In this document: piece after piece, positions 11,730-47,998 of the stretch | Numbering within the stretch: the first letter of the stretch is position 1 | Layout of the letters: each line of letters begins with the position of its first letter | Assembly: GCA_963665665.1 (NCBI GenBank) | Contig: OY762428.1 | Location: forward strand, 2,400,001 to 2,464,000 | Direction: 5' to 3' | DNA from: Candidatus Kapaibacterium sp. | Lineage (GTDB): Bacteria > Bacteroidota > Ignavibacteria > Kapaibacteriales > UBA2268 | Length of the DNA: 64,000 nucleotides | Notes under the pieces: generated by a model | What the model was told of the DNA's origin: nothing | The model's input: the letters and a program-made list of their open reading frames with translations, nothing else | Database searches by the model: none | Position numbers and translations under genes: made by a program

Positions 11730-11767
11730 TGTTCACTTTCAGGTTATCGTCCTACAAGCCTTGAAAA

Positions 11768-12418
11768 TTATTGAATAATAAACTGGTTGATCAATACATT
11801 CCTGAGATACATCCTGTTTTTAAGGAATATTGGTTTCAGATCATGCTTGAATATAACTGAGAGAGAATCCCTGTTCTCATGCAGCTGACTCTCTGACATA
11901 CCGCCAATAATATTATTGATCTTAGATCTCATCTTTGCTTCTACGATCTCTTCAAGTTTAAATTCGCCACCGTGTCCCTCTCCTTCAGCGGCTTCTTCTC
12001 CATCTTCAGCGTGAGGTTTTACCCTGACTTCAAGCCCCAGGTCTATCACAACAATCTTTGTTGACCCCTTGGGGTTTGTCATGATTTTCCCGGTTTTCAG
12101 GAAGTGCACGCCTTCTTTTTCGAACATTAGTTCTTCTTCGGTCTCATCCTCAAACTCGTCTTCGTCGTGAGCTTTTTTTTCTTTTTCGCCGTGGCCTTCT
12201 TCAGCTTCTACCTGTTCGGTTTTATTTCCTGCATTCGGGTTGCCGAGCCCATCGATGAGAAGAGGAATAAAAAGGAAATAAGTAGCTGCGATAAAGATAA
12301 TTACAATACCGAATATTACCCCGAGTACAACAGGTAATTTCATACCATCTCCGGAGGTATTCCTTTTGGGTTTCTTCGGTTTTTGTTTTTCTGTGCCTTC
12401 GTTTTTTTCTTCTGCCAT
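11768..12418 (-). CDS. fliL: Flagellar basal body-associated protein FliL
   Basis: Single N-terminal TM helix, MTNPKG, C-terminal FIIQ; directly upstream of fliM. Confidence 0.88.
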   Translation of the reverse strand: MAEEKNEGTEKQKPKKPKRNTSGDGMKLPVVLGVIFGIVIIFIAATYFLFIPLLIDGLGNPNAGNKTEQVEAEEGHGEKEKKAHDEDEFEDETEEELMFEKEGVHFLKTGKIMTNPKGSTKIVVIDLGLEVRVKPHAEDGEEAAEGEGHGGEFKLEEIVEAKMRSKINNIIGGMSESQLHENRDSLSVIFKHDLKPIFLKNRMYLRNVLINQFIIQ

Positions 12419-27723: not shown

Positions 27724-28214
27724 TTTGGCCTCCCGGCTTTATTAATAATCGTTTCAATCACTGTGTGCAATATAGAGCATAGCATACAAGAAAAAAATAG
27801 CTGAAATCGTGATTAATCTGTAGTTTTTGAAAAACGGCATGTAGTAATTTTCCTACAATTGTGTAAAAACGATTTTATGAATTCATATTAATATTTATCA
27901 GAAAGCATGTATCCATGAATATTTATAACTACTACCACTTGTAGTAGTTTTTGTGAAATATCCCCATTTTTCTTAATTTATTTGAGTAAAAGACGCAAAT
28001 TATTTTATATTTTTTTTTGAATATTTTCTTTTTCTTTTAAAATTTCCTTCATTTCATTGTTCATGAAGGAAACGTTATTTCTCAGAAGATTGTATGGGAG
28101 TGATAGGTTTTAATGCCCCCCTTTATCCGATGCATCAAATCCGGCTTGCAAGTGCGGGGAATCTTTGTTATTTTTATTTTTTACGTGAAAACCATTGGCA
28201 GAAAGAGTTTTAAT

Positions 28215-29231
28215 ATGATTAACGAGATCAAAGAACTGAAAGATACAATGGCCGCAAGGCTGGAAAATGTGAAGAATACCGCAGGGCTTGAGGATTTCAG
28301 GCTGGAATTCCTTGTTAAAAAAGGAAAGGTGCAGGCCCTTTTCGACAGGATGAAAGAAGTTCCAAAGGAAGAAAAGCCGCTCGTGGGTAAAGAACTGAAC
28401 ATTATGAAGAAATTCGCCGAAGCAGCTTTCAAAGATCTGAAAGAAAAACTGGAAAGTGCCGGCGAAACTGAACCGGATATCGACCTGTCGCTGCCTGGAA
28501 AGAAATCTTTCCACGGTACTTATCACCCCATCTACCAGGTTGTGGATGAGATGATAGATATTTTCACCCGTATGGGCTTTACCGTGGCAGAAGGCCCCGA
28601 GCTTGAGGACGAAACCCATAACTTCGACAAAGTGAATTTTGCTCCCGACCATCCGGCAAGGGATATGCAGGATACTTTCTTTATCAAATCCGAGGATAAA
28701 GACCTGCTGCTAAGGACGCATACAACTCCTATGCAGATCAGGGTGATGAACGCCATGAAGCCGCCTATCCGCTGCCTGATGCCCGGCAGGGTTTACCGCA
28801 ACGAGGCAATAAATGCCCGCTCACTGGCGGAATTCCACCAGATAGAAGGCCTTTATATCGACAAGAATGTTACTTTTGCCCAGCTGAAGGGAACGATCAT
28901 GGCATTTGCAAAGCAGATGTACGGCGAAAACTCCAAGTTCAGGTTCAGGCCGTCCTACTTCCCATTCACCGAGCCGAGCGCCGAGGTGGATATAAGCTGC
29001 TACCTTTGCGGAGGCGAAGGCTGCCGTATTTGTAAATATACCGGCTGGCTGGAAATTGCAGGCTGCGGAATGGTTCACCCCAACGTGCTTCGCGCAGGCG
29101 GAATCGATCCCGAGGAATACACCGGCTTTGCATTCGGGTTCGGCATAGAGCGCGTGGCAATGCTGCGCTCAGGAATAACCGATATACGGCTCTTCTACGA
29201 GAACGACGCCCGCTTCCTTGAGCAGTTCTAA
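28215..29231 (+). CDS. pheS: Phenylalanine--tRNA ligase alpha subunit
   Basis: HPARDMQDTF, LRTHT, FHQIEGL, FRPSYFPFTEPS and GFAFGFGIER; start taken at MINEIK. Confidence 0.98.
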   Translation: MINEIKELKDTMAARLENVKNTAGLEDFRLEFLVKKGKVQALFDRMKEVPKEEKPLVGKELNIMKKFAEAAFKDLKEKLESAGETEPDIDLSLPGKKSFHGTYHPIYQVVDEMIDIFTRMGFTVAEGPELEDETHNFDKVNFAPDHPARDMQDTFFIKSEDKDLLLRTHTTPMQIRVMNAMKPPIRCLMPGRVYRNEAINARSLAEFHQIEGLYIDKNVTFAQLKGTIMAFAKQMYGENSKFRFRPSYFPFTEPSAEVDISCYLCGGEGCRICKYTGWLEIAGCGMVHPNVLRAGGIDPEEYTGFAFGFGIERVAMLRSGITDIRLFYENDARFLEQF

Positions 29232-29421
29232 AAGATTTACCAGGCCCCGCTTTTGCGGGGTTTTTTTATTGAACGATATCGTCTGATAAGCTATTTATAG
29301 CCGGATAAACCCAATAGGGAAAAATCATCCTTAATTTTTAAAAATCAATTGGATAAAGAAAATATTTTATTTATATTTTCGATATATTTTTTATATTTAA
29401 AAGTTGGCGGTCATGCAAGGA
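29208..29421 (+). repeat. Direct repeat copy 1 (pheS 3' end + terminator + downstream ~150 bp)
   Basis: Matches 32672-32886 with about 7 differences by manual alignment. Confidence 0.95.
29243..29270 (+). terminator. pheS terminator (a second copy lies near 32707-32735)
   Basis: GCCCCGC-TTTT-GCGGGG followed by T7. Confidence 0.85.
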
Positions 29422-29612
29422 AAGACTGCACAAAAAGTTAAGTAGAGTATTGAAATTGCAACAGCACAATTTGTATTTTTCACGAGCAAATGTTTACCTA
29501 AAAAAAGAAAAAGAAATAATCAAAAAAATATTATATTATTGTAAATTGCGGTTTTAGACAAATTGATTTGTAAAATTTGTATTAGATTGAGGTTTTTGTA
29601 AAAAAAGTATAA

Positions 29613-30113
29613 ATGACAGAAGAGCATATAAAAGAAGCCATATCATTGAGATATTTAGAGCTAATAGCTGCTTATAGAGGTTATGATGTCTCAAATTCTA
29701 AGAAAGATTATGGGCGTGATTTACAGATTGATGAAGTTGATCAATTTAATGGTAGGTTGTTAAGCACAAATCGCTCTCTTTATTTTCAAGTAAAATCTAC
29801 AACACAAAAAACAATTATTGAAAATGACAATTCAATTAAATATGATTTAAAAACAAAAAACTATAACGATTTAATAACTCTTAGAGATACTGCAAATCCT
29901 TTAATATTAATTGTTTTTGTTTTACCGGAAAACAAAAATGAATGGATAGAATTATCAAAAGACGAATTAATTGCACGAAAGTGCGCATACTGGTATATGC
30001 CTTCTGATAAAGCAAGTCAGTCTGATAATAGTATTTCAACAAGAATTGAGATTGATAAAAATCATTTAGTTGATTTAAAGACATTTGATTTATTATTTAA
30101 TAAGTATTTATAA
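29613..30113 (+). CDS. DUF4365 family PD-(D/E)xK nuclease-like protein
   Basis: KEAISLRYL, DYGRD, YFQVKST, YDLKTKNYNDL, PLILIV and CAYW. Confidence 0.8.
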   Translation: MTEEHIKEAISLRYLELIAAYRGYDVSNSKKDYGRDLQIDEVDQFNGRLLSTNRSLYFQVKSTTQKTIIENDNSIKYDLKTKNYNDLITLRDTANPLILIVFVLPENKNEWIELSKDELIARKCAYWYMPSDKASQSDNSISTRIEIDKNHLVDLKTFDLLFNKYL

Positions 30114-31210
30114 TGAAAAATCAAATAATATATAAAAATATAACCGACCTTTTGCTTAATAGAAACTGGGTGAAATCAGAAAGCAAATCTAAATTTGATG
30201 TTTTTCTACCTCCTGCTGACTTGGGTATTGAGAAAAGTTATTGTTTTTATTTATATAACAAAATAAATAATACAGATTTTGAAAAAACAATATTGAAAAG
30301 CATTGATGTATTAACTCAAATTTATTCCAATGATGACATTGATGATTTAGGGTCAATAATTATTGATGATAGACAAGTGTTGTCATTGCATATTCATAAT
30401 GACGAAATTAAAAATGGAAAACCGAGTATTCGATTTTTTGAACTTTTGCTTCATAATTCAAAAAGTTTATTAGAGCAAATAGCTAATTTTAGTGTGATAA
30501 ATAAACCTCATTTTTTTGACAATAGAGAAGAGGCAGAAAGATATTTGAATTATTGTAATTTTTTAAAGAATGATGTTGGTAGTCTAATTACTAAAATTCA
30601 ATTGCCTAATAACGAAGATATAATAGAAAAGACATTGTTTGATAGTGCTTTAAAAGCTAATCAAATTAATAAAAACTTAATAAATATTACAGATTTTGTA
30701 AATAATGAAATATTGGCTCAGGAGAATTTTGAGCCTGACGATGACTTTATTATAAACAATAAAAAATATATAAGTGTCAATGTTTCTGATAAACTGAAAA
30801 GTTTATATAAAGATATAGAATACTCAGATATTGAATTTTCGTTAAAAGGTGTTGACACTTTTGAAACAACAAAAGCGATTGATTTAAGTCGTGAGAAGGT
30901 AAATAATTTAGGTTCATTTTCTCGCAAAATACGAGAAAAGATGAAAGAGATTTCCGAAGATTTTGTTGACTTGACTGGAAAAATAGTAAAATTACAATCA
31001 AAAGATGTTGATAGTGATAAGAATACAATCACAATAGAAAGTATCATTAATAATGTTAAGAAAGATGTGTCGGTAAAATTAAGTTCTGACCAAATAAAAT
31101 TAGCAGCAGAAGCATTTAAGGATAGTAAAACAATCACATTAAATTGTAAATTAGAAAAAGAAAAAACTAAATATAAAGTAACAGAGTTAAACGATTTTAG
31201 AATTAAATAG
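30113..31210 (+). CDS. Hypothetical protein translationally coupled to the DUF4365 gene
   Basis: TAATG stop/start overlap; 365 aa, AT-rich; C-terminal OB-fold-like region (LTGKIVKL...VSVKL...AAEAFK). Confidence 0.75.
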   Translation: MKNQIIYKNITDLLLNRNWVKSESKSKFDVFLPPADLGIEKSYCFYLYNKINNTDFEKTILKSIDVLTQIYSNDDIDDLGSIIIDDRQVLSLHIHNDEIKNGKPSIRFFELLLHNSKSLLEQIANFSVINKPHFFDNREEAERYLNYCNFLKNDVGSLITKIQLPNNEDIIEKTLFDSALKANQINKNLINITDFVNNEILAQENFEPDDDFIINNKKYISVNVSDKLKSLYKDIEYSDIEFSLKGVDTFETTKAIDLSREKVNNLGSFSRKIREKMKEISEDFVDLTGKIVKLQSKDVDSDKNTITIESIINNVKKDVSVKLSSDQIKLAAEAFKDSKTITLNCKLEKEKTKYKVTELNDFRIK

Positions 31211-31258
31211 CCAGCTCCAGTTCCAAATCCAATAGGATAGTAAGGACTAAGCACGAAA

Positions 31259-31388
31259 ACCTAACAAAAGCTATACGTAATTTGGGTAAGGTGCTAAAAT
31301 TGAAGTTTATAGCATTAAATGAAATTAGTGGTAGATTGGAAATTAATCGTTTCGAAATCCCGCACTACGCATATTCGAGCCGTTGTGA
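31259..31388 (+). other. attC-like imperfect palindromic recombination site
   Basis: ACCTAAC...TATACGTAATTTGGG...CCCGCACTACGCATA...GTTGTGA; the inner arms pair 11/15. Confidence 0.65.
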
Positions 31389-31401
31389 GTAATTAGGAAA
31401 A

Positions 31402-32613
31402 ATGAGCATCAGGACTATAAATATCATTCTTTTAGTTATTTGTTTTAATTCGGTTTTCGGACAAACAAATTTGATTATTCCAAATAAAGGCATTGAAGGG
31501 ATTTCTATTGTAATTGACTCATCAAAAATTTCGGATGTAATAGCAATATTTGGAACAGATTATACTTTAACCGAAAAGACTTTAATTACAAATTATCAAT
31601 ACGACAAGCTCGGACTGACTTTTCAAATAGACCCTTATGACAAAAACCAAATTGTTAGGTCCATTTCAGTTGAATCACCTTTTAAAGCAAAAACAGAAAA
31701 TGGAATTGTACTTAATGAAAGTACAATGAATGATGTTTGGAACACATTCAACGACAAAGGGTGTTTCACATCAAAATCTTATGCTTGGAATACTCAAAAA
31801 GGAATTTCTTTTTACATCAAAAAAGACCCTAATGAAAAAGGATATGACACAGACGAAAAAATCTATAAAATCGAAATAAATAATGATAGCGATTTTGGAA
31901 TTTCTTCAAGAGTAAATTTCGAGTTTAACGATATACCTGTAAACAAAAAAGTAAACAGTTTAATCGCTATTCTTCAAACAGACAATTTTGACTTTAAAAG
32001 TTTGGATGCTTTTTGGAGTAAAGAGAAAACTACCGAAAAAAAGCCTTATGGACTTGAAAAACGGACAAATTTTATTAGAAAAATTGAAAATAATTTAACT
32101 CAAGAAAGTTCTGAAATATGGCTTGTAGGGAGCTCTTATAGTCTCAACATCATAAAATCCGAAAATGAATTAGTTTATTTAAAACTAACAGACAATAATG
32201 AGCAAAAAACGCTAATTGAAAGAATAGAAAACCCTCAATTCGAAAAAATCGATTTAAACGTTTACACATACGGAACATTTTGTGGAATCGCAGGAACACC
32301 ACCAGATAAATGCCAAGTAATGCTTGAATTAGTCAATGAGAAGAATTACGACCAATTGGCAAATTGGTTAAAATCGATAAATCCTGAAATTGCTACTTAC
32401 GGTTATGTTGGACTTGAATTTCTAAAGAAAAAAGGAATTACAATCGAAAGAGTTGAATTAGAAAGAATGACAATATTAAGTGAATCTGAAATACAACTTA
32501 ATACTTGTCAAGGTTGCATTTTCGGAGTGACTGAAAAGATAAAAGACGTTTTAAAAAATAAAAATATTAATCAAATTTATCGTTCGTTTCAACAAAGCGG
32601 ATGGATAAAATAA
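31402..32613 (+). CDS. Hypothetical secreted protein (gene-cassette cargo)
   Basis: Signal peptide; YGTFCGIAG and CQGC motifs; tightly bounded by complementary GTT.../...AAC ends. Confidence 0.75.
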   Translation: MSIRTINIILLVICFNSVFGQTNLIIPNKGIEGISIVIDSSKISDVIAIFGTDYTLTEKTLITNYQYDKLGLTFQIDPYDKNQIVRSISVESPFKAKTENGIVLNESTMNDVWNTFNDKGCFTSKSYAWNTQKGISFYIKKDPNEKGYDTDEKIYKIEINNDSDFGISSRVNFEFNDIPVNKKVNSLIAILQTDNFDFKSLDAFWSKEKTTEKKPYGLEKRTNFIRKIENNLTQESSEIWLVGSSYSLNIIKSENELVYLKLTDNNEQKTLIERIENPQFEKIDLNVYTYGTFCGIAGTPPDKCQVMLELVNEKNYDQLANWLKSINPEIATYGYVGLEFLKKKGITIERVELERMTILSESEIQLNTCQGCIFGVTEKIKDVLKNKNINQIYRSFQQSGWIK

Positions 32614-32680
32614 CTACACACAACAATGTATATACAAAATGGACGAGATAGTAGAAAATTCAACGGTTGTAGCCCGCTTC
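32611..32680 (+). other. Truncated second attC-like site (left arm only)
   Basis: CACAAC-AATGTATATACAAAATGG...AAAATTCAACGGTTGTAGC, homologous to the left half of the 31259 site, then fused to repeat copy 2. Confidence 0.55.
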
Positions 32681-32886
32681 CTTGAGCAGTTCTAAAAGAT
32701 TTACCAAGCCCCGCTATTTGCGGGGTTTTTTTATTGAACGATATCGTCTGATAAGCTATTCATAGGCGGATAAAGCCAATAGGGAAAAATCATCATTAAT
32801 TTTTAAAAATCAATTGGATAAAGAAAATATTTTATTTATATTTTCGATATGTTTTTTATATTTAAAAGTTGGCGGTCATGCAAGGA
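32672..32886 (+). repeat. Direct repeat copy 2
   Basis: About 97% identical to 29208-29421. Confidence 0.95.
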
Positions 32887-33140
32887 CAGAGCTATAAGTA
32901 TGAAATGCTCCCTATTGCTTAGACAAATAAAAGTATAGTTTATGGTGTTTATTAATCTATACTTCTTCTCTAATAAAATAAGAAAAAAATATGTAATAAT
33001 ATTAATTTTTCTTTTTTTTGCTACTTTTTTTTCTTTTTGTTAACAACCTGGAAATTGTGGATAACTTTCACTCTCCTTTCTATTTCTTTTTTTATCAATT
33101 GCTTACCGGATTACATTTTTTCACTTTTCCAACAAAGTTT

Positions 33141-33986
33141 TCAATTAACGAACCGCTGTTCGTTCATATATTTTTCAGCCGGAATCTGGTATTCAATTCC
33201 TGCGTGCGGCCTCGTGTTGTTATACCAATCGACATAAGCCTTTATACCGCCATAGAGCTCTTTTCCGTCTTCGTAAGACTTCAGATACAGGTCTTCGTAT
33301 TTAAAGCTCCGCCAGAAGCGTTCTATGTAAACATTGTCCAAGGCGCGGCCCTTGCCGTCCATGCTTACCTTAACATCAGCATCCAGAATCGTTTTCACAA
33401 AATCATTGCTCGTGAACTGACTGCCCTGATCCGTGTTTGTTATTTCCGGTTTCCTGGTTTTCAAAGACCTTTTTATTGTATCTATGCAGAACTCCTTCTC
33501 AAGGTTATTCGATAATTCCCAGTCGACGATATACCTGCTATAAACATCTATAATTGCTATAAGATACATAAATCCTTTACGCATCGGAATATATGTTATA
33601 TCCAGGCTCCAAACCTGATCCGGACGACTTATTTTCATATCCCTCAACAGGTATGGATAAATTTTGTGCTCCTTGTTCGGTTTGCTCGTGTCCGGTTGGG
33701 GATATATTGCCCGAAGTCCCAATAATTTCATTAATCGCCTGATTCGTTTATAGTTAACATGGTATCCCAAAGAACGTAAGTGTGCTGTCATTTTTCTGGC
33801 TCCATAAAATGGAGTAATCGCGAATTGTTCTTTGATCAGCTTCATATATAGAATATTTGCTTCACTTTCACCCTTGGGTTTGTAATAATAACAGCTCCTG
33901 CTAATACCCAAAAGCTCGCACTGCCGGCTTATGCTAATTTCTTTATTATCAGCATCTACCATCTTCCTGCGTTCTTCTTTACTCAC
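33141..33986 (-). CDS. IS3-family transposase OrfB (HTH_21 + rve DDE)
   Basis: WSLDITYI, NTDQGSQFTS, DNVYIERFWRSFKYE and YNNTRPH. Confidence 0.95.
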   Translation of the reverse strand: MSKEERRKMVDADNKEISISRQCELLGISRSCYYYKPKGESEANILYMKLIKEQFAITPFYGARKMTAHLRSLGYHVNYKRIRRLMKLLGLRAIYPQPDTSKPNKEHKIYPYLLRDMKISRPDQVWSLDITYIPMRKGFMYLIAIIDVYSRYIVDWELSNNLEKEFCIDTIKRSLKTRKPEITNTDQGSQFTSNDFVKTILDADVKVSMDGKGRALDNVYIERFWRSFKYEDLYLKSYEDGKELYGGIKAYVDWYNNTRPHAGIEYQIPAEKYMNEQRFVN

Positions 33987-34266
33987 GGCCCAATTTTTTT
34001 TTTAACCAGTCTAATTCAATTTTTAGCCGGCCTATTTCTTCATATAATACTGATTCGTCTTTTTCTTTTTTATTCTTCCCTGGCCCACGCTTGTTTTCAA
34101 ATACTTCCTTTTCACTTTCTTTTAAATGCTTTTTCCACATGCTTATCTGGTTTGGATGAACCCCGTACTCCGATGCCAGCTCGGTTATTGTTTTTCTCTC
34201 TTGGACTGCCTCCAGGGCTACCTGCATTTTGAATTTTGAACTGTAATTTCTTCGTTTGTTTGCCAT
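33979..34266 (-). CDS. IS3-family transposase OrfA (HTH)
   Basis: RRNYSSKFKMQVAL, YGVHPNQISMWKK and LYEEIGRLKIELDWLKKK. Confidence 0.93.
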   Translation of the reverse strand: MANKRRNYSSKFKMQVALEAVQERKTITELASEYGVHPNQISMWKKHLKESEKEVFENKRGPGKNKKEKDESVLYEEIGRLKIELDWLKKKLGRE

Positions 34267-34352
34267 TTGATGCTCCTTTTGATTTTTTGCAAGTTAAGAT
34301 TATTTCACCTTAAATCGCTGTTTTTTTTAAAGGAAGCCGTTCATATAAAATC

Positions 34353-34620
34353 AATCAAAAAACAACCACCCCTTTAATCCCCTCCAGTGGAGGGGAATGC
34401 TAATTATAAGGTATATAGGGAGATAAGCTCTTCCGGCGGAGGGGTGGCCGAAGGCCGGGGTGGCGTTTGTCCTCCTTCAAAAGCCCTGCTTAGGAAGGCA
34501 ACCACCACAAAGCATAATTGATACTGCATATCTAAGCAGGGGCTTAGATACGAGGAAGAAAATTATTATAGAATCAAAAACAACCACCCCTTTAATCCCC
34601 TCCAATGGAGGGGAATGCTA
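34353..34620. repeat. Cluster of REP-like GC-rich palindromes
   Basis: AACCACCCCTTTAATCCCCTCC-x-TGGAGGGGAATGCTA at 34353-34402 and 34572-34620, with an oppositely oriented relative at 34427-34465. Confidence 0.75.
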
Positions 34621-34783
34621 TTTGCATGATATGAATGAAGACCCGGAGTTGAGGAACAGGGGATTAAAATCAACTTTGGGTTAAATCTGATTACAATTCT
34701 TAATCAGTTAATAATTTACTGGCTTTAAATTTGCATTTTTCTTATCTTCAAAATTGTTAGTGTAGCAAATAAAAGAATTAAAG

Positions 34784-36061
34784 ATGGAAAAATCAGATAT
34801 ATTGGCAAGTGCAAAGGCTTTTGTAAAAACTATTTTTACAGAAAATATTCCGGGGGAATATCTTTATCACAATTACGACCATACAAAAAGAGTTGTCAGG
34901 AATACCGCAAAAATTGCCGAAGGCTCGGGGCTAAGCGAAAAAGAGACTGAAATTGCCCTGCTTGCTGCATATTTCCACGATTCAGGATTTTCTGTCAGGT
35001 ATAAGGATAACGAGAAAGACGGAGCTGAAATTGCTGAAACATTTCTTAAAAAATCGGGATACCCCGATGAAAAGATCGCTTTGGTAAAAGAAGCCGTGCT
35101 TGCTACGGCGATGCCGCAGAATCCCAAAAATAAAATATCCATGGTGCTTTGCGATGCTGACCTTGCAAATCTGGGAAAGAAATACTTTTTTGAAGTAAAC
35201 GAGCTTATTCGATTGGAGTATGGATTTGTTAAGGGTAAGGATGTTGACAGGGAAGAATGGTGCAGACAAACATTGAAACTGATGGAAACTCACCGCTATC
35301 ATACTGATTTTGCTAATGAAACACTCGGCCCGAGAAAATTGAAAAACCATAAGAAACTTAAGGAAAGGCTTGCCGGAGGTGATGTGAACAATATCGATCC
35401 AATTAAAGAGATGCAGAAAAAAAAGGATAAGAAAAAAAATAAAGAAAAAAAACCGGGTGTTTTTACTCCGCCGGTAACGAAATCAAAAGAAGATCTTGTA
35501 CAGGAATTCCTGAACAAACCACCCAGCAGGGGAATTGAAACAATGTTCCGTAATAACCTGCGGGGGCATTTGGAACTTAGCGGGCTTGCGGACAACAAAG
35601 CCAATATAATGCTCAGTATCAATGCTGTTGTGCTTTCAATTATTGTTTCGGTAATGATTCCTGAAGTAACCCGCACGCCGGTACTGGGGCTTCCGACCCT
35701 TATACTTGTGCTAACATGTGTTACTACGATTGTTTTTGCCACCATTTCCACCCGCCCCAAAGTAACCAGCGGAACATTCAAAAAGGAAGACATCAGGAAT
35801 AAAACAGCCAACCTGTTGTTTTTCGGGAATTTCCATAATATGAATATCGATGATTTTCAGTGGGGTATGACAGAAATGATGAAGGATAAGGAATTTCTTT
35901 ATGGCTCCATGATCCGTGATTTTTATTATCTCGGGCTTGTGCTGAACAAGAAATACAGGTATCTGAGATTTACTTACTCGATATTTATGTTCGGAATAGT
36001 GATCTCTGCTATTGCCTATATTATTACATTTGTATTTATGCACAGCCAAAACCCTTTGTAA
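34784..36061 (+). CDS. HD-domain phosphohydrolase fused to a Pycsar-effector-like (DUF5706) membrane domain
   Basis: YHNYDH, FHDSG and CDADL; RGIETMFR...ADNKANIMLS, NLLFFGNF and KKYRYLR; three TM helices. Confidence 0.88.
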   Translation: MEKSDILASAKAFVKTIFTENIPGEYLYHNYDHTKRVVRNTAKIAEGSGLSEKETEIALLAAYFHDSGFSVRYKDNEKDGAEIAETFLKKSGYPDEKIALVKEAVLATAMPQNPKNKISMVLCDADLANLGKKYFFEVNELIRLEYGFVKGKDVDREEWCRQTLKLMETHRYHTDFANETLGPRKLKNHKKLKERLAGGDVNNIDPIKEMQKKKDKKKNKEKKPGVFTPPVTKSKEDLVQEFLNKPPSRGIETMFRNNLRGHLELSGLADNKANIMLSINAVVLSIIVSVMIPEVTRTPVLGLPTLILVLTCVTTIVFATISTRPKVTSGTFKKEDIRNKTANLLFFGNFHNMNIDDFQWGMTEMMKDKEFLYGSMIRDFYYLGLVLNKKYRYLRFTYSIFMFGIVISAIAYIITFVFMHSQNPL

Positions 36062-36078
36062 TTCAAATGCATTGCTCT

Positions 36079-36744
36079 ATGAAATTAAAAACAGAAAAAT
36101 TCAGGATATCAGAGATATTCCACTCCATTCAGGGAGAAGGTATCAAAGCAGGACTTCCCTGCGTGTTTGTCCGCCTTCAGGGTTGCAATATGAATTGCAG
36201 CTGGTGCGATACAAAACATGCAATCCCCCCGAAAAAAGGGATCGGAATGTCCCGGGAACAAATTATTTGCGAAGTGGAAAAGTATGAATGCAATTTTATC
36301 GAGTTTACCGGTGGTGAACCCTTATATCAGCCAAATATCCACTGTCTGATGAAATATTTTTGTGATAATGGTTATGATGTTTCGATTGAAACTAACGGGC
36401 ATTATGATATTTCAGCAATTGATGCACGTATCAATATAATTATGGATATAAAATGCCCCGGTTCCAAAATGATTCATAAAAATAATTATAAAAACATTGA
36501 ATTTCTGAAGCCAAAGGACGAGGTGAAATTCGTTATTGCCAGCGATGAGGATTTTGATTTTGCAATTGATTTGGTAAATAAACACCATATTTGCAATAAA
36601 ACACCAAATATTGTTTTTTCTCCGGCTTTTGGCTCTATGCCTGCGGAAAGACTTGCAAACCTTGTACTTAGTTCTGGCTTGCCTGTGCGAATGCAGCTTC
36701 AGATGCATAAGTTTATCTGGCATCCGGACAAACGCGGAGTATAA
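36079..36744 (+). CDS. queE: 7-carboxy-7-deazaguanine synthase (radical SAM)
   Basis: EIFHSIQGEG, CNMNCSWCDT, FTGGEP, ETNG and QLQMHKFIW. Confidence 0.92.
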   Translation: MKLKTEKFRISEIFHSIQGEGIKAGLPCVFVRLQGCNMNCSWCDTKHAIPPKKGIGMSREQIICEVEKYECNFIEFTGGEPLYQPNIHCLMKYFCDNGYDVSIETNGHYDISAIDARINIIMDIKCPGSKMIHKNNYKNIEFLKPKDEVKFVIASDEDFDFAIDLVNKHHICNKTPNIVFSPAFGSMPAERLANLVLSSGLPVRMQLQMHKFIWHPDKRGV

Positions 36745-41214: not shown

Positions 41215-44200
41215 ATGACCAACATGTGCGATTTTCGACTTCCCCCTTTAAGAGGTAAATGGATATTTTCTTCCTTAATTGCCTTTTTTATTCTTTTCGG
41301 GGAATTAATTTCTGCCAATTATAATTTCTACCTGAACCAGCGCCGCCGGTTCGACCAGGTTCATGTGGAAGTTTGGTGTCGTGCCGATACTACAAGCAGG
41401 GCCAGGCTTGGTTACGGTTCGCTTGTTATCAGGTATAATTCGGATTTTCTAAGTCCCGCCGTGGATCAATCGCCTACTGCAACTGATTCAATAAATTTTG
41501 ATATTGACAGAAGCAACCCGATAGATGCCATAACATCCGGATTCAATTCTTCAAACGGATACTCCGGGCTGGGTACAAGGTCCTACGGAAACGGATATTA
41601 TTCACTTGAGCTTAACCTTAATAATATAGGAGAGGGTGGATTAACACCTTCCCAGGACGGCAGGGGAAGTTTTATCGGTAAGATAATTTTTGATATTGTT
41701 AATTCTCCGGCCGATACGAATATGACCGGCATTGAGTGGAGCAGAAGCGATACTAACCAGGCCGGAGCCATCAGGCTGTTCGACTTCGAGGGCGAAGATG
41801 TTCTTGCCAATTCTGAATTTAACGACCCCGGTGATTTCACTATTGTGGGTATTGAAGTTTTATCACCCGATCATTTCGGGCAGGTGGTACACAGAAATTA
41901 TAATTATGCATCGCTTGCGGGATGGTATGCCGAAGGTGGTTATCCGATATATTTCGAGCGTAGTGTTAATCCTTCGGAATATACTCCGCCAACAGGAAAT
42001 GCCCCTGCACTGGACGAGGACCTTGGTTACATTTTTGAGTTTTCTGTTGATGCCGGTACATCGTTTACCGAGTTCGGGCGTATTTCCGAATCGGACAGAT
42101 ATGCCAATATAGTCGGAAAGAATCTTAAATATCTTGCCGGTGAAATGTATAATCCAGCAAGAACTAATACATATATCATTACAGATTATAATGGCAGCCA
42201 GATAAACAGGCTTAATTATCGGAATCCTGTGCGTGTTATATGGGCCAAGGACCCGAATTTTAATTATCAGACAAAAACAGGAAGGATCCGGATAAGGATA
42301 CTTGACGGAGAACTTGATGACGGACTTCCGCTTAGGGAACCGGGAGATATATTTGATGTCAGCGATGAAGATTTTGTTATTGGCAAACTCTTCTACCTCC
42401 AGTTCAACGGAACAAACGAATATCTGAAAACTGCAAAAAACTATAGTAATTCCACTCAGCTTACTGTTGAAGCATGGGTTAACCTGAATGAATACAAGAC
42501 AGAAGAAGGCCTTGAGCCCGGAATTGTTGTTTCCAGCGCCGGGCCTGATGCAGCCCCGATAAACGGATCCAAAGAAGGTGCCTGGATGCTTTACCTTGAG
42601 GATGGAAAATATCCTGCTTTCAGGGTAAGAGAATTCGAAGGCCGCGGCCCGGAAGGCTATCTTGCAAAAATAATTGCATATGACGCGCTTGATACTGTCA
42701 GCGCAGATCAGAATCTGACTAAGAAATTCTCGGATAATTGGGTTCATCTCGCCGCCACGGTCAGGAACAATGTGGTAACATTATATATAAACGGTGAGAT
42801 TTCCGATCAGGTAACAAATAATCAGGATATTGATATCAGGATGCGAACAACGAATCATCCAATATGGGTTGCAGTTAATCCTACCGCCAGCCCGGACGGA
42901 CTGGTGCATCTTCCCGCAGGAATCAAAGGGGTGAAAATTTGGCGTGTTGCCATGACACAGCAGCAGGTAAGAGAACGTGTTGCCGGTGTTGTTGATCCAT
43001 CCGATGTATCCGTTTACGGCGATCTGCGCAGAGGGCTTGAGATTTATGCCCCGCTTACCGGCGACCTGAAAGATAAAGCTACCGATAATGTATATCAAAA
43101 TGCAGCTTCGGATTTTGATTTTTATTTGGATGAAGAAATTGATAACCAGGCAACAAGCTTCAGGCCGGATATGGCACACCTGAAATTAACAGCGCCACTT
43201 GAAGGTGTTGGAGTATCCAATGCCCAGGATAAAAATTTCCAGGTAAGATGGGTTTCTTATGGTGTTGGTAATATTGCAAATGCAGGTTCCAAAGATATTG
43301 AAATTGAGTACAGCCTGGACGGTGGAAATACATGGAATGCTGCAAAGAATCCGGCAAACGATCCTCTCGCCGGAAATACTGCTCCCGATGTAGAATTCGG
43401 TAACACGAGCTGGGAGCCATACCTGAACAATGATGAAGGTTTTAATCTCAGGGATATCAGCGCTTCCGATAAAGATCTGTATTTAAGGATCAGGGGGCGC
43501 GAGGACAACGGACAATTTGAAATAAATGATATTGAAGGGCCTTTCAGAACCGGATTATATTTTTCGATTAAAAAGACTGAAGGCTCGATTCTTTACATGA
43601 AGCCTTCCTTCGGTATGAATATCAGTGGAAATACCGCATATATCGAGGCATGGATAAGGCCTTACCGCTTCCCGACTACCACGGAACAGTTTTTTCCGAT
43701 AGTATGCAAAATGGATACTGTTACAGGAGCAGAACATTACTCGCTTCTGCTTCTTGAAGACGGCAGGCTTCGTTTCAGGCTGATGGATGAAAACGGCAAC
43801 GTGAAATATGCCGACAGCGATCCGGAATATCCCGTGGTTGCGCCGAACTCCATTTCTGTTGATTCCGCCTGGACTCATGTAGGGGTTTATGTATTTCTGA
43901 ATAATGGCAATGGCCCGAGCGAAGTAAGATTTTTTGTAGATGGTATTCCGCAAAGAGATGATTCCCTGTCGGCTCAGCTTGGAGATGACCTTGTTCTGAA
44001 TACCCTGAACGAATACCCCGTGTATTTTGGATATCATTCATCGGATGGAATTTCAACCGGTTTTGTCGGAGAAATCAGAGAACTCAGATTCTGGAGCGGT
44101 GCTCCTAATTCCGAATTTCCTTCGGGACAGGAACCGACACCCATGAGTCTTTTCATTCAGGGTGCACAGTCTGTTCGTGCCGGAGAGCTTGAAGCAGGAT

Positions 44201-47200
44201 TTAAATCAAACCTCTATCTCTGGTATTCCTTCAACGGAGGCTCTTTTGTTAATAATGGCTATTTGCGTTCGCTGGCATCATCAACGAATAATGCGATAAT
44301 TGCCCGTTACTATGGCGAACCCATTTCATATATCCCGACGAAACCATATATTAAACTTGTTGAACCGGAATTTCGCCAGCAGGTTACAAATTCAAATAAA
44401 AATGTTCGTGTACGCTGGGTTGGTTTTGATTATGACAAAACAGAATTTTATTCAGGAAAATCCGGGCAGCCTCCTTCCGTTGAATTTTCAATACAGGGCG
44501 GCGGCGGAAATATTATCCAGCCTTATCAGTTTGTTGCGGGCGGATATTGGTCCGGCAACAGGATTAATGCACTGACTTTCCCGGATGATGACAAATATAT
44601 ATTTAAAGGAATTGGCGATGATGTTATAATTGCCGGTAAAATGGATGCCTCGGTTGCCGATCCCGATGATAATGACGACGGACAATTCAATGACCAGGGG
44701 CCTCTTGCTGCGTCTCTGACAAATGCAAGATTGCGCCTGACCGGGCAATACACTATTTACGGAACAACAAGAAAGCTTACCAGCGAAGGCCCTCTGTTTA
44801 CTGTAATGCCATCAAGCAATTTCACGATCAGGGCATTGCTTGAGGGATTCCACGACGGTGAATATACCGGCAGGCAGATCAGGGATATCGGAAAGTCTTA
44901 TGATGAGGGCGGCCTGAGGATATGGCTGTACAGGGATAATTCCGGAGCTCCGGGCGAGCTTGTTGATTCAGCCGATTCCAAAGAAGGATATGAAAATCGT
45001 ATGCCTGAGGACAGGGCAAGAAATACTAATAATTTTGCCAATGTAAACTTTATATTTCCCGATCTGACAGACGGCAGCTACTGGGTTGTGGTAGATCATT
45101 TAAACCATCTGCCGGTTATGTCTCGTTTTGCTGCCCCGTTTATCTACGAGGGCGATGTTCATAATACCTGGGCAATAGAATCGGGATGGGACTTCCAGGC
45201 ATGGAACGGAGAGGAAGACAATGTACTTCCCGCTGCCGCGGCCAATCCTTATACAAATGGATACTTTACAGCTTACGGCCCGGCAGTAACGGATATTAAC
45301 GATCCGCTCTATTCAAATTCAGGACTAATATTTAACGAGGGTATGGGCGGCGGTAAGAACCGATCCTTACCGGCACTGACCGGGGGGGATGTTGACGGTA
45401 ACGGTCAGATTGACGCCGCCGACCGTGTCCGCGTCAGACTTAATGATGGAACAGGAACTATTAGCTCGGATGTTACGGGCGACGGCGTGGTTAATGCTGA
45501 CGACCGTACAGTAACTGACAGGAATTTCGGAAAAATTTCCTCGATAAAGGAAGTTGAATTTGATGGTGGTATTATTCCCGTGCCGAATGACAATTATGTC
45601 AATGACCCGTTTTCATCAATTTCTGAAGTAAATCCGGGGCTTAGTACAAAATTCAACGAAGCCGCGAAAAAAGTAAATTATTCAATACCGGTGAAATTTA
45701 AAGACAGAACTCAGGCGGTATTTGATTTTGACCTTACTGCCGAGGCCCTGAAAAATGGAAATACAATTGAACTATCATTATATATAAAGAACAATGCAGA
45801 TACTTTTGCCCTGGCAAATTGTACTTTCGCAGTCAGCTACAACTCTTCGGTTCTGAAATATAAAGACCTGAAGGGTGAGGAAAATGTTATTTTCAGCGAC
45901 GATGCCGTTCATGGTTATTCAAGGATAAGGTCGGCTCCGGAAGAAGGAGCATCGAACCCTATACCTGATGTCAGGACTATTGAAGTGGACTATGATGCAT
46001 TTTCCAATCCCGGTGGTTTGAATGTACCCTGGGAAAAAACTTTCCTCGGAACCCTGGTTTTTGAAATCACAAACGAGCAGGCTGCTGTGTCATTTGGCTG
46101 GCATTCCAGCACTTCAATCCACAGCGTGGCTCAGGGCGTGATGACAGATTACGCTGATATGCAGGATATTGAACCTATTCTGCTTTACAATGCTGCCGTG
46201 GTAGTTCCGAACGGAGGCGAAAGTTACGCTCCGGGCAAACAGGTTGACGTAAGCTGGAGCGGCGAGGGAACTGCAAATGTTATTCTGGAATATTCCACTA
46301 ACGGCGGTTTCAACTGGTTCGACCTTACGGAAAATCCGGTTCCGGTTAACCAGAATACTTATGTATGGACAACACCTTCAACTGCATCATCCGAATGCTT
46401 AGTCAGGATTCTTGACAGCGAGACCGGCAAGGAAGTTGACCGCAGCGATGATGAGTTTTCCATCATGCCCAACTTTGCACAGATCATACGGCCTTCATCG
46501 GGCGATCCGATTTACCAGGGCGGTGCAAGCGATTATATTCGCTGGGTAACTCAGGGCTATACACGCGTAAGGTTTGAATTTTCGGAAGATGCAGGAGCAA
46601 GCTGGAAATCCGTATCCGGCAGGGTGGAGGCCAAAGAAGGCATGTATACCTGGAAACTTCCCAACGTTACCACCAAGACAGCATTGATCAGAATGATTGA
46701 TTACGAGACCGACGAGGTTATAGCCAGTTCCGGCGTATTTAAAATATTGAACGGCAGCCTTAGCTTCCGTGAGCCACGTGCCGGCGATGAATATAAACTT
46801 GGCAGGGTAAGGCGAATTCGCTGGATAGCCGAGGAACTTGATGAATTTGACCTGGATATAAGTTATAACGGCGGCGATAGCTGGGAGCGTCTTCAGTCAT
46901 CCGTGGATGCCATTCGCGGCTATATGGACTGGACAGTCGAGGGTGAGGAAACCACCAAAGCTATGCTGAGGGCTTTATGGAATGGCGACGCTGTTATGGA
47001 ATACGACCGCTCGCCTTTATTCAGTATAGTTCCGGATCCGGGTTTTGTATATGACAAACTGCCGGCCGGCTGCTCGGTATCCGAAACCTATCCGAACCCG
47101 GCAGGAGCTAAAGTTTATATTGATATTAAAGTTAACGAGACAGAAAAAATTGATATTCAGATAAAAGATATTGCCGGCAGGACGATACTCAGGCCGGCGC

Positions 47201-47328
47201 CGCGCACCATTATTCCCGGCGAGGCTAAACTTGAAATTGACCTGAGCGGCCTTGTGCCCGGCAGGTATTTTATTACTCTCAGTTCCGGGCGTATCAGGGC
47301 TGCGAGAGCAATAGAAATTGTACGTTGA
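41215..47328 (+). CDS. Giant T9SS protein: cohesin-like, 2 LamG, dockerin-like, cohesin-like, 3 Ig-like, type-A CTD (paralog A)
   Basis: Signal peptide; TVEAWV...WVHLAAT and EAWIRP...WTHVG LamG motifs; DVDGNGQIDAAD...DVTGDGVVNADD; PNGGE/EYSTNGG Ig repeats; YPNPA...PGRYF...IEIVR. Confidence 0.85.
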   Translation: MTNMCDFRLPPLRGKWIFSSLIAFFILFGELISANYNFYLNQRRRFDQVHVEVWCRADTTSRARLGYGSLVIRYNSDFLSPAVDQSPTATDSINFDIDRSNPIDAITSGFNSSNGYSGLGTRSYGNGYYSLELNLNNIGEGGLTPSQDGRGSFIGKIIFDIVNSPADTNMTGIEWSRSDTNQAGAIRLFDFEGEDVLANSEFNDPGDFTIVGIEVLSPDHFGQVVHRNYNYASLAGWYAEGGYPIYFERSVNPSEYTPPTGNAPALDEDLGYIFEFSVDAGTSFTEFGRISESDRYANIVGKNLKYLAGEMYNPARTNTYIITDYNGSQINRLNYRNPVRVIWAKDPNFNYQTKTGRIRIRILDGELDDGLPLREPGDIFDVSDEDFVIGKLFYLQFNGTNEYLKTAKNYSNSTQLTVEAWVNLNEYKTEEGLEPGIVVSSAGPDAAPINGSKEGAWMLYLEDGKYPAFRVREFEGRGPEGYLAKIIAYDALDTVSADQNLTKKFSDNWVHLAATVRNNVVTLYINGEISDQVTNNQDIDIRMRTTNHPIWVAVNPTASPDGLVHLPAGIKGVKIWRVAMTQQQVRERVAGVVDPSDVSVYGDLRRGLEIYAPLTGDLKDKATDNVYQNAASDFDFYLDEEIDNQATSFRPDMAHLKLTAPLEGVGVSNAQDKNFQVRWVSYGVGNIANAGSKDIEIEYSLDGGNTWNAAKNPANDPLAGNTAPDVEFGNTSWEPYLNNDEGFNLRDISASDKDLYLRIRGREDNGQFEINDIEGPFRTGLYFSIKKTEGSILYMKPSFGMNISGNTAYIEAWIRPYRFPTTTEQFFPIVCKMDTVTGAEHYSLLLLEDGRLRFRLMDENGNVKYADSDPEYPVVAPNSISVDSAWTHVGVYVFLNNGNGPSEVRFFVDGIPQRDDSLSAQLGDDLVLNTLNEYPVYFGYHSSDGISTGFVGEIRELRFWSGAPNSEFPSGQEPTPMSLFIQGAQSVRAGELEAGFKSNLYLWYSFNGGSFVNNGYLRSLASSTNNAIIARYYGEPISYIPTKPYIKLVEPEFRQQVTNSNKNVRVRWVGFDYDKTEFYSGKSGQPPSVEFSIQGGGGNIIQPYQFVAGGYWSGNRINALTFPDDDKYIFKGIGDDVIIAGKMDASVADPDDNDDGQFNDQGPLAASLTNARLRLTGQYTIYGTTRKLTSEGPLFTVMPSSNFTIRALLEGFHDGEYTGRQIRDIGKSYDEGGLRIWLYRDNSGAPGELVDSADSKEGYENRMPEDRARNTNNFANVNFIFPDLTDGSYWVVVDHLNHLPVMSRFAAPFIYEGDVHNTWAIESGWDFQAWNGEEDNVLPAAAANPYTNGYFTAYGPAVTDINDPLYSNSGLIFNEGMGGGKNRSLPALTGGDVDGNGQIDAADRVRVRLNDGTGTISSDVTGDGVVNADDRTVTDRNFGKISSIKEVEFDGGIIPVPNDNYVNDPFSSISEVNPGLSTKFNEAAKKVNYSIPVKFKDRTQAVFDFDLTAEALKNGNTIELSLYIKNNADTFALANCTFAVSYNSSVLKYKDLKGEENVIFSDDAVHGYSRIRSAPEEGASNPIPDVRTIEVDYDAFSNPGGLNVPWEKTFLGTLVFEITNEQAAVSFGWHSSTSIHSVAQGVMTDYADMQDIEPILLYNAAVVVPNGGESYAPGKQVDVSWSGEGTANVILEYSTNGGFNWFDLTENPVPVNQNTYVWTTPSTASSECLVRILDSETGKEVDRSDDEFSIMPNFAQIIRPSSGDPIYQGGASDYIRWVTQGYTRVRFEFSEDAGASWKSVSGRVEAKEGMYTWKLPNVTTKTALIRMIDYETDEVIASSGVFKILNGSLSFREPRAGDEYKLGRVRRIRWIAEELDEFDLDISYNGGDSWERLQSSVDAIRGYMDWTVEGEETTKAMLRALWNGDAVMEYDRSPLFSIVPDPGFVYDKLPAGCSVSETYPNPAGAKVYIDIKVNETEKIDIQIKDIAGRTILRPAPRTIIPGEAKLEIDLSGLVPGRYFITLSSGRIRAARAIEIVR

Positions 47329-47470: not shown

Positions 47471-47573
47471 GACAGGAAGAATTTAACCAGTACTTTGAAA
47501 ATTGAAATAAATATGTTTATCGGAGCTTTATCCATATCATCCGAGAGAAAAAATATGGTAAAAGATATTTAAG

Positions 47574-47846
47574 ATGAGGCAAACCATTGCTCGGATGAGA
47601 CAGACCATCGCTCGGAAAGGGCAAACCATCGCTCGGAAAGGGCAGATCATCGCTCAGATGAGACAAACCATCGCTCAGATGAGACAGACCATCGCTCGGA
47701 AGAGGCAAACCATCGCTCGGAAGAGGCAAACCATCGCTCGGAAGAGGCAGATCATCGCTCGGAAAGGGCAAACCATCGCTCGGAAAGGGCAGATCATCGC
47801 TCAGATGAGACAAACCATCGCTCAGATGAGACAGACCATCGCTCGG
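47574..47846. repeat. Tandem repeat, 13 x 21 bp, open in frame on both strands
   Basis: Variants of ATGAGACAGACCATCGCTCGG / AAAGGGCAAACCATCGCTCGG / AAGAGGCAAACCATCGCTCGG; units 3-6 equal units 10-13. Confidence 0.95.
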
Positions 47847-47877
47847 AAGCATTAAATTGACAATTTTTCGAAATATA

Positions 47878-47998
47878 TGTCACTCTGAGCGCAGCGAAGA
47901 GTCCATTCTTCAGGAAAAGCAGAAGAAAGATGTATTCTTCACTTCGGAAGCCTGCCCTTGCCTGCCCCGATTTATCGGGGACGAGTCGGGGAATGACA
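47878..47998. repeat. Second REP-like family element with a nested palindrome
   Basis: TGTCACTCTGAGCGCAGCGAAGAGTC ... ATTCTTCACTTCG[insert]GAATGACA; the insert contains CCCCGATTTATCGGGG. Confidence 0.6.

Follow-up and report, generated by a model that had tools for sequence, protein, structure and literature searches.

What kind of element occupies the low-GC DNA behind the phenylalanine-tRNA ligase gene pheS of a Candidatus Kapaibacterium sp. genome? An original prediction, made from the letters alone, had described it as an integron-like array of gene cassettes with non-canonical attC-like sites and no integrase. We addressed this question in a window of 64,000 nucleotides (nt) (contig OY762428.1 of assembly GCA_963665665.1, positions 2,400,001 to 2,464,000 of the forward strand; positions given below are those of the window unless the genome or another record is named), in which the array spans positions 29403 to 32680. 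The prediction was largely right: its observation was confirmed and its interpretation is supported. The region is likely the short remnant of an integron-like array of gene cassettes and has no recombinase. As proposed, it belongs to a cassette-shuffling system of this phylum group, marked by a family of covarying sites, by arrays of co-oriented open reading frames (ORFs), and by cassette boundaries on GTT.

The evidence begins with the sequence between the two cassettes of the window, a full attC-like site of 134 nt (31257 to 31390, plus strand; AAC at 31263 to 31265, GTT at 31382 to 31384) that scored 95.4 bits with our covariance model R1 and was also found by a profile built from relatives only (31260 to 31388, E = 5.4e-17). 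Its stem arms lie at about 31269 to 31284 and 31361 to 31376. The two A·C mismatches that had been described in it, A31275 x C31370 and A31280 x C31365, are the two that are conserved throughout the site family. A DNA search of the genome with this palindrome returned a single copy, and profile searches were needed to reveal the family: the genome carries 8 full copies and about 6 left halves. In full copies, AAC and GTT are invariant and stand 121 to 125 nt apart, and between them lies a covarying stem of 14 bp with two conserved A x C mismatches. Across the 8 copies of this genome, the stem inside AAC and GTT is 77% paired, compared with 28 to 40% when it is slid, and none of 500 shuffles reached the covariation found. 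We then turned to 70 sites from relatives (66 of them distinct), none of which had been used in model building, although all were aligned to the model. Their stems are 94% paired versus 24 to 33% in slid controls, compensatory changes occur in 14 of 14 pairs, and double-change cells number 316 versus 114 ± 8.5 in shuffles. The site in the window is a full-length member of this covarying family.

G-U pairs are nearly absent from the stems of the relatives' sites, which fits DNA rather than RNA. The first fixed mismatch has A in 70 of 70 sites opposite C in 66 of 70, and the second A in 56 of 70 opposite C in 53 of 70; on the bottom strand, both would read G·T. When folded with DNA parameters, 51 of the 66 sites are more stable as the bottom strand, by a mean of 1.5 kcal/mol, and we infer that the folded strand would be the substrate of recombination. 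The sites have no conserved bulges, the two conserved A x C mismatches being present instead, and they otherwise show the anatomy of the attC type, i.e., an imperfect palindrome behind cassette ORFs with outer AAC and GTT, inner paired boxes, and a variable center. No Rfam family matched the site (only chance matches to the terminator were obtained), nor did anything in a collection of phages. One further site with AAC, stem, and GTT, on the reverse strand of a relative's locus (L072, about 11725 to 11869; genome G151), was not reported by R1 at the thresholds used, so that the site counts given here are lower bounds.

Positions 29403 to 32680 consist of two cassettes, with the full site between them and the left half of a second site behind. 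The attI-like platform that had been suggested just upstream corresponds to an array head (29290 to 29405, plus strand), recognized by its likeness to other heads, with GGATAAA-type boxes and a GTT at 29403 to 29405. This head matches that of a 4-cassette array in the same genome (genome positions 2760512 to 2760643) at 28 of 29 nt and with 71% identity over 133 nt, and its alignment with the recombinase-proximal region of one relative (G121) is at the level of motifs. It would be the equivalent of attI. Cassette 1 holds two genes that overlap by one base. Gene A (29613 to 30113, plus strand) encodes a DUF4365 protein (Pfam DUF4365, E = 4.6e-19) that matches component A of PDC-M02 in PADLOC (PDC-M02A, E = 2e-42); gene B (30113 to 31210, plus strand) matches component B (PDC-M02B, E = 1.3e-22) and no Pfam family. 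With the genes for components A and B adjacent, as PDC-M02 requires, cassette 1 is a predicted PDC-M02 pair, which PADLOC holds to be a candidate defense system. The strings placed at the ends of this unit, at 29403 and 31251 to 31265, are present, and their complementarity is as weak as had been claimed. No homologs of the three ORFs of the array were found in the first 220 loci examined.

Cassette 2 (31402 to 32613, plus strand) encodes a protein of 403 amino acids with a signal-like N-terminal segment, a predicted secreted protein that belongs to no Pfam or PADLOC family and for which a protein atlas look-up returned only low-score "hypothetical protein" clusters (best 0.77, Bacteroidota). 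The unit begins with GTTGTGAGTAATTA at 31382, its ATG stands at 31402, and TAACTACACACAAC at 32611 to 32624 matches its start in inverted orientation at 12 of 14 positions, all as originally described. When two 44-nt zones at the same spacing served as the control, a score of 12 of 14 or better was reached at 11 of 2,000 random places in the window and in 9 of 1,000 shuffles of the island; the match is unusual but not extreme. Behind this ORF lies the left half of the second site (32612 to 32680, plus strand; AAC at 32622 to 32624), which the relatives-only profile detected at 32618 to 32680 (E = 5.4e-11). Full family copies elsewhere run on past its cut point, and the 51 nt behind the stop codon of the 403-amino-acid ORF recur elsewhere in the genome.

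Independent comparisons agree with crossover at G/TT, cassettes running from GTT to GTT, with extra breaks at AAC. Two congeneric species, G196 and G194, agree completely in their recombinase-proximal heads as far as the GTT and have unrelated first cassettes from there on. A plasmid of Riemerella anatipestifer has a unit with lnu(I) that shares 96.3% identity over 1,068 nt with the recombinase-adjacent first cassette of G158, which belongs to the window's own taxonomic family, and the identity runs from the G of the preceding GTT to the GTT of the unit's own site. Homologs of the 403-amino-acid protein were found on six metagenome contigs (79 to 87% amino acid identity), each between sites of the same family. 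Three of these contigs extend to the 5' end; DNA similarity to the window begins at 31381 in two of them and at 31360 in the other, and their upstream sites are all unrelated. Within one type of site interior, the ORF and the site are held in common, the break falls on the GTT, and three different downstream neighbors follow. Other copies of the palindrome bracket ORFs, and close homologs of the 403-amino-acid protein keep their boundaries elsewhere; the reverse of both had been named as evidence against a cassette array.

Which enzyme would serve such arrays? As had been noted, the window contains no intI, and the whole genome, a single contig, has none either, its best match to TIGR02249 scoring 90.5 bits against a cut-off of 265. 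The array heads of relatives adjoin a tyrosine recombinase of 265 to 275 amino acids (Pfam PF00589 and PF13495), for which the best NCBIfam match is NF040815 (214 to 241 bits). On TIGR02249 it reaches 180 to 217 bits in two pieces, below the cut-off, and alignment with true IntI revealed that it is without the IntI insertion of about 40 amino acids and has kept the catalytic residues. It was found in 31 of 130 genomes of the taxonomic family (34 matches). We sorted the 34 genes by hand with flanks of ±7 kb; 11 were too near a contig end, and 14 of the 23 testable genes have a site on their divergent side within 5.2 kb. Recombinase and arrays are linked in these relatives. We also examined 80 loci from named genomes (at most 49% identity, among the matches listed; site threshold E ≤ 0.01), a set that samples the spread of the recombinase and is no measure of it. 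A site stood beside the gene in 11 of 34 loci named as Bacteroidota, in 1 of the 2 unnamed ones, and in 0 of the 44 loci of other phyla, and none of the listed loci came from the window's own family. In a quick tree with SH-aLRT support only, 5 IntI rows split from all others (support 99), and 13 array recombinases fell within one clade of 18 rows (support 96). We infer that this enzyme would be the catalyst of cassette exchange; the family's integron-like system appears to use a recombinase other than that of classical integrons.

The array might also be an ordinary cluster of attC sites lacking integron-integrases (CALIN), in which a canonical IntI recombined the classical attC sites and left them behind. 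PMC9024848 records integrons in Chlorobi, Ignavibacteriae, and Salinibacter, site anatomy and ORF orientation match attC, and canonical IntI above the TIGR02249 cut-off (listed at E ≤ 1e-40) was found in 4 of the order's 254 genomes, including one of the same family. Within that family, however, 73 of the 129 other genomes have sites and only 1 of 129 has IntI. Moreover, the five IntI loci examined (one with 15 kb of upstream sequence, the others with 2.7 to 4 kb) contained no R1 match at E ≤ 1. It is the insertion-less recombinase that heads the arrays, and the tree separates IntI from it. We consider an ordinary CALIN very improbable and retain the reading as an array of a distinct, integron-like system. 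A tyrosine recombinase acting in trans had been proposed for the window. A non-IntI enzyme of this kind does stand at the array heads of relatives, but this genome has no member of the array-recombinase clade (the nearest proteins are 33 to 37% identical, from Xer-like genes), which leaves service in trans without a candidate here. Since the genome has neither a canonical IntI nor an array-type recombinase, the array is most likely frozen and probably now inactive; only cassette 1 would in principle still have both ends. No excision or circle joints were found in the sequencing runs, which were available as contigs and were informative for the stretches these cover.

A scan of this genome and its relatives with a model of the sites, as the original prediction had suggested, showed how far the system extends. 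Sites occur in 74 of 130 genomes of the family, representing 39 of 55 genera (E ≤ 0.001), and in 65 of 151 genomes drawn evenly across the phylum, representing 40 of 89 genera (E ≤ 1e-4). The named records with a site, among the matches listed, are all Bacteroidota. In the same genome, positions 2760512 to 2764336 comprise a head and then four ORFs, each directly trailed by a site, which encode, among others, HEAT-repeat and RhuM-family proteins. Arrays in relatives have up to 7 sites and units of one to four co-oriented genes, and their cargo includes a Wadjet (JetABCD-like) set, restriction and methylase genes, and Fic, SnoaL, and RibD_C proteins.

The sites also match plasmids (9 records) of Riemerella anatipestifer, Myroides odoratimimus, Persicobacter, Fulvitalea, and Chondrinema. 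Among these are plasmids from pathogens of animals and of humans, on which the system also carries antibiotic-resistance genes. On pRCAD0416RA-1 of R. anatipestifer, the sites stand behind lnu(I), relE/HTH, blaOXA, tet(X), estT, phosphotransferase, and APH(3') genes. On the Myroides plasmid p63039, a divergent tyrosine recombinase, 35 to 43% identical to the array clade and paired with an IS91 transposase, stands ahead of GNAT, blaOXA, and MYO-1 genes, each of which has a site behind it. A module of a tyrosine recombinase and an IS91-family transposase occurs three times within 14 kb on the M. odoratimimus plasmid NZ_CP013691 (49336 to 63464; L228), each time ahead of resistance genes, and may move the array head.

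Experimental data on units of this kind were found in a 2026 paper (PMC13148043). There, aph(3')-IVb is reported to integrate at a specific site of the R. anatipestifer chromosome, without flanking homology, as a unit with 27 bp of 5' flank and 140 bp of 3' flank; the 3' flank folds like attC, lnu(H) and blaRATA behave alike, and the mechanism is "not yet elucidated." As there described, these units resemble the cassettes of the site family in comprising a gene, a short 5' flank, and an attC-like 3' stem-loop region of about 140 bp. Integration is site-specific and falls beside a relE/HTH pair, and family sites follow relE/HTH on a plasmid of the same species. The accessible text differs from our findings in that it names no recombinase and is silent on the site family, on the head, and on the spread across the phylum. 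Our literature search, for which subscription journals were mostly beyond reach, found no paper describing the site family, the head, or the recombinase. As a separate observation, the flanks of the Riemerella integration locus are a cation-diffusion-facilitator (cdf) gene and the relE/HTH pair (PMC13148043, legend to Fig. 3), and the far end of an array in a relative (G137; L074, 18068 to 18955) abuts a cdf gene as well; this may be a coincidence or point to a common chromosomal site.

Several findings count against the reading as a cassette array, or against parts of it. The imperfect palindrome at 31257 to 31390 is present and belongs to a covarying family, but its own fold is no better than that of shuffled sequence, either as DNA (z = -0.72 for the top strand, matched by 43 of 200 shuffles, and z = -0.12 for the bottom strand, matched by 79 of 200) or as RNA (z = -0.25). 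The strand bias that had been read from the A·C mismatches holds for most sites of the family, but the window's site is more stable as the top strand, opposite to most members. The left arm does recur at 32612 to 32680, as claimed, but only as model positions 3 to 65 of 134, its center being cut at the start of a direct repeat's right copy. As the original prediction had stated, the two copies of this repeat (29208 to 29425 and 32672 to 32890) part about 19 nt past the GTT and not at the GTT itself. The head has its likeness to one other head in the genome and to motifs in relatives, whose recombinases adjoin a conserved head that closes with GTT, but the window's head has no recombinase next to it, and BLAST found no match between it and the relatives' heads. 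Distant homologs of the second ORF turned up in 5 genomes of a 400-genome phylum sample (at most 37% identity), none of the five with an adjoining site. As to the recombinase, 5 of the 23 testable genes have no site nearby and 4 have another arrangement of sites, the gene is often co-oriented with the array in other Bacteroidota (among the matches listed), and the enzyme's catalytic role is a putative one. Finally, similarity to the 403-amino-acid unit stops at 32632 to 32634 in six of six contigs, about 10 nt past the AAC, and an inter-genus pair (G194 and G151, 91% identical over 807 nt) has its left break at the GTT and its right break at the AAC. Breaks just past the AAC that lead into unrelated interiors are not predicted by the classical cassette model.

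These last breaks bring in another explanation, namely, that the AAC-GTT interiors of about 122 nt are themselves small mobile palindromic elements that insert into short palindromic targets behind genes, the "cassettes" being the DNA between them. The block of the 403-amino-acid ORF is indeed joined at its AAC to at least four unrelated interiors, and the pair G194/G151 behaves likewise. One interior type is near-identical across the phylum and scores 134 bits in another class, and the cassette ends form an inverted repeat of 12 to 13 of 14 positions, which would be a palindrome if the interior were removed. The genes differ, however, on both sides of common blocks, so that blocks move and not interiors alone. 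Within one interior type, moreover, similarity extends through ORF and interior to a break on the GTT, the lnu(I) unit includes its whole site, and the break between head and cassette falls on a GTT where no interior exists. We regard mobile interiors without mobile cassettes as very unlikely. In the cassette reading, the comparisons indicate that units move from GTT to GTT while interiors are also swapped at AAC, and the latter exchange might reflect a crossover on the other strand.

The direct repeat deserves closer attention, for it gives rise to a third explanation. The gene pheS (28113 to 29231, plus strand), encoding the phenylalanine-tRNA ligase alpha subunit (Pfam tRNA-synt_2d, E = 5e-101, and Phe_tRNA-synt_N), is the host gene upstream of the array; its GC content is 0.46 to 0.53, and its stop codon ends at 29231. 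Its last 24 nt fall inside a direct repeat of 218 bp, which continues with the terminator and the next 170 nt. The left copy (29208 to 29425, plus strand) thus contains the 3' end of pheS, the terminator hairpin, and the array head, and the right copy (32672 to 32890, plus strand), 96% identical to it, represents a second array head with its GTT at 32868 to 32870. Between the copies lies a block of 3.46 kb with a GC content of 0.22 to 0.33 and three co-oriented ORFs. The 9-nt string GCCCGCTTC, found at the center cut of the second site, is also part of the pheS 3' end, the point at which the right repeat opens.

This arrangement could mean that the palindromes are terminator-like or repetitive extragenic palindrome (REP)-like, with no role in recombination, and that the low-GC block entered or was duplicated as an island by way of the 218-bp repeats. 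The repeat with its pheS end does flank the block, the 9-nt string is common to both sides of the junction between half site and repeat, and sites always follow right behind stop codons, the site profile beginning a median of 10 nt behind the ORF stop (101 site-adjacent ORFs). The stretch from 29426 to 32671 contains no integrase gene, however, which an integrase-borne island would carry, although direct repeats are present. The sites are also unlike RNA terminators in their few G-U pairs, their invariant AAC and GTT, and their lack of an Rfam match, and neither the breaks of similarity on GTT, the linkage of sites with the recombinase, nor the published integration data agree with this explanation, to which we attach hardly any probability. 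Within the reading as a cassette array, the repeat, which starts at GCCCGCTTC, duplicates the end of pheS together with the terminator and the head, and it is not the product of a crossover at GTT. Our guess is unequal recombination at a short shared string, followed by loss mediated by an insertion sequence (IS). No sites were found downstream of pheS in 19 loci of relatives, and the location behind pheS is hence not common to those searched.

Two half sites elsewhere in the genome (2049206 to 2049273 in L039 and 1834133 to 1834207 in L038) are joined to head-like sequence with a GATAAAC box and TTTTGTATATT, the same layout as that of the window's half site and right repeat. Three half sites of the cassette family lie 0.1 to 1.5 kb from copies of an IS3-family element. 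In sequencing run X10, which carries another organism label, a contig has 2 differences in 1,988 nt from cassette 1 (29396 to 31383) and 20 differences plus 3 gaps in 597 nt from the end of pheS and the left repeat (28829 to 29425), so that the cassette is more alike than the host gene.

From the relatives, the following course can be reconstructed for an active array. A tyrosine recombinase gene would lie beside a conserved head ending in GTT, and cassettes of one to four co-oriented genes would follow, each closed by a site of about 134 nt in which AAC comes first, then an imperfect hairpin stem (14 bp, two fixed A x C mismatches), an interior of about 75 nt, and finally GTT. Cassettes would be cut and joined at GTT, in which case a unit spans from one GTT to the next. 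On this scheme, the window would comprise a head (GTT at 29403), cassette 1 with its PDC-M02 pair, an intact site (GTT at 31382), cassette 2, and a half site. A wider proposal, which we think rather probable, is that the Bacteroidota have a mostly overlooked integron class of their own, with an integrase of a Xer-like clade without the IntI domain, sites of about 134 nt recognizable by two fixed A x C mismatches, possible crossovers at GTT and at AAC (on either strand), and a cargo of defense and accessory genes in environmental genomes and of antibiotic-resistance genes on plasmids of Riemerella and Myroides, a class that IntI-based tools would miss.

The array is bounded, 10 nt past the right repeat, by an IS3-family insertion sequence of 1,443 bp that lies outside it (32901 to 34343, minus strand; rve/HTH_21 and HTH_Tnp_1 ORFs) and has 17 more copies in the genome at 98.6 to 100% identity. 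Behind it, a 66-nt repeat with a GC-rich hairpin (34358 to 34423 and 34576 to 34641), of which the genome has dozens of partial copies, looks like a REP-like element. An HD-domain protein with a Pycsar-effector transmembrane domain (PycTM, E = 1.3e-33) is encoded at 34784 to 36744, followed by a radical-SAM protein, and may represent another defense module just beyond the array. Farther downstream, an ORF of 2,037 amino acids (41215 to 47328) is closely followed by 12 tandem copies of a 21-nt unit (47531 to 47891), behind which lies an ORF of 3,032 amino acids (48517 to 57615).

While the window itself is a decayed, recombinase-less example, the site family that it led to has integron anatomy, is present in roughly four-tenths of the phylum-wide genome sample, and is tied to a recombinase without the IntI domain. 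If this enzyme is the catalyst, cassette shuffling would be separable from the IntI insertion, and the family would offer a natural test of strand choice. The resistance genes of Riemerella, whose mode of integration is "not yet elucidated," would then also have a candidate enzyme, and a large, unsearched pool of cassettes, defense systems included, would open.

How does this system compare with those already known? With classical integrons the arrays share a recombinase gene beside a head site and co-oriented, mostly promoter-poor cassettes that end in an imperfect palindrome running from AAC to GTT. In both, the crossover is on GTT and the first bases of a cassette complement the start of its own site, and both have accessory, defense, and resistance cargo and a strand asymmetry in the fold. 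They differ in the recombinase, which is without the IntI-specific insertion and scores below the cut-off of the IntI model, and in the sites, where the span from AAC to GTT is near-fixed at 121 to 125 nt, the interior sequence is partly conserved, and two A x C mismatches are conserved whereas classical integrons have bulged extrahelical bases. Many cassettes also hold two to four genes and reach about 7 kb, and breaks occur at AAC as well, both unlike classical integrons. IntI is defined by its extra domain, which is said to be essential, in the available portions of PMC4889954 and PMC8138268, the latter of which also describes the insertion as not fully conserved in an "integron-like" subgroup of simple tyrosine recombinases. 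Like Xer-type enzymes (NF040815, XerA-like), the array recombinase combines a SAM-like N-terminal domain with a catalytic domain, but Xer resolves chromosome dimers at dif, whereas the array recombinases head cassette arrays and are patchy in distribution (the 31 of 130 family genomes given above). The window itself resembles a CALIN in having sites and cassettes with an integrase neither nearby nor anywhere in the genome; a CALIN is defined by at least two attC sites under the model of IntegronFinder, while our own model R1 finds one full and one half site in the window. In the available portion of PMC9024848, IntegronFinder 2.0 reports few integrons in Bacteroidota, and the phylum in which this site family is so widespread is held to be integron-poor.

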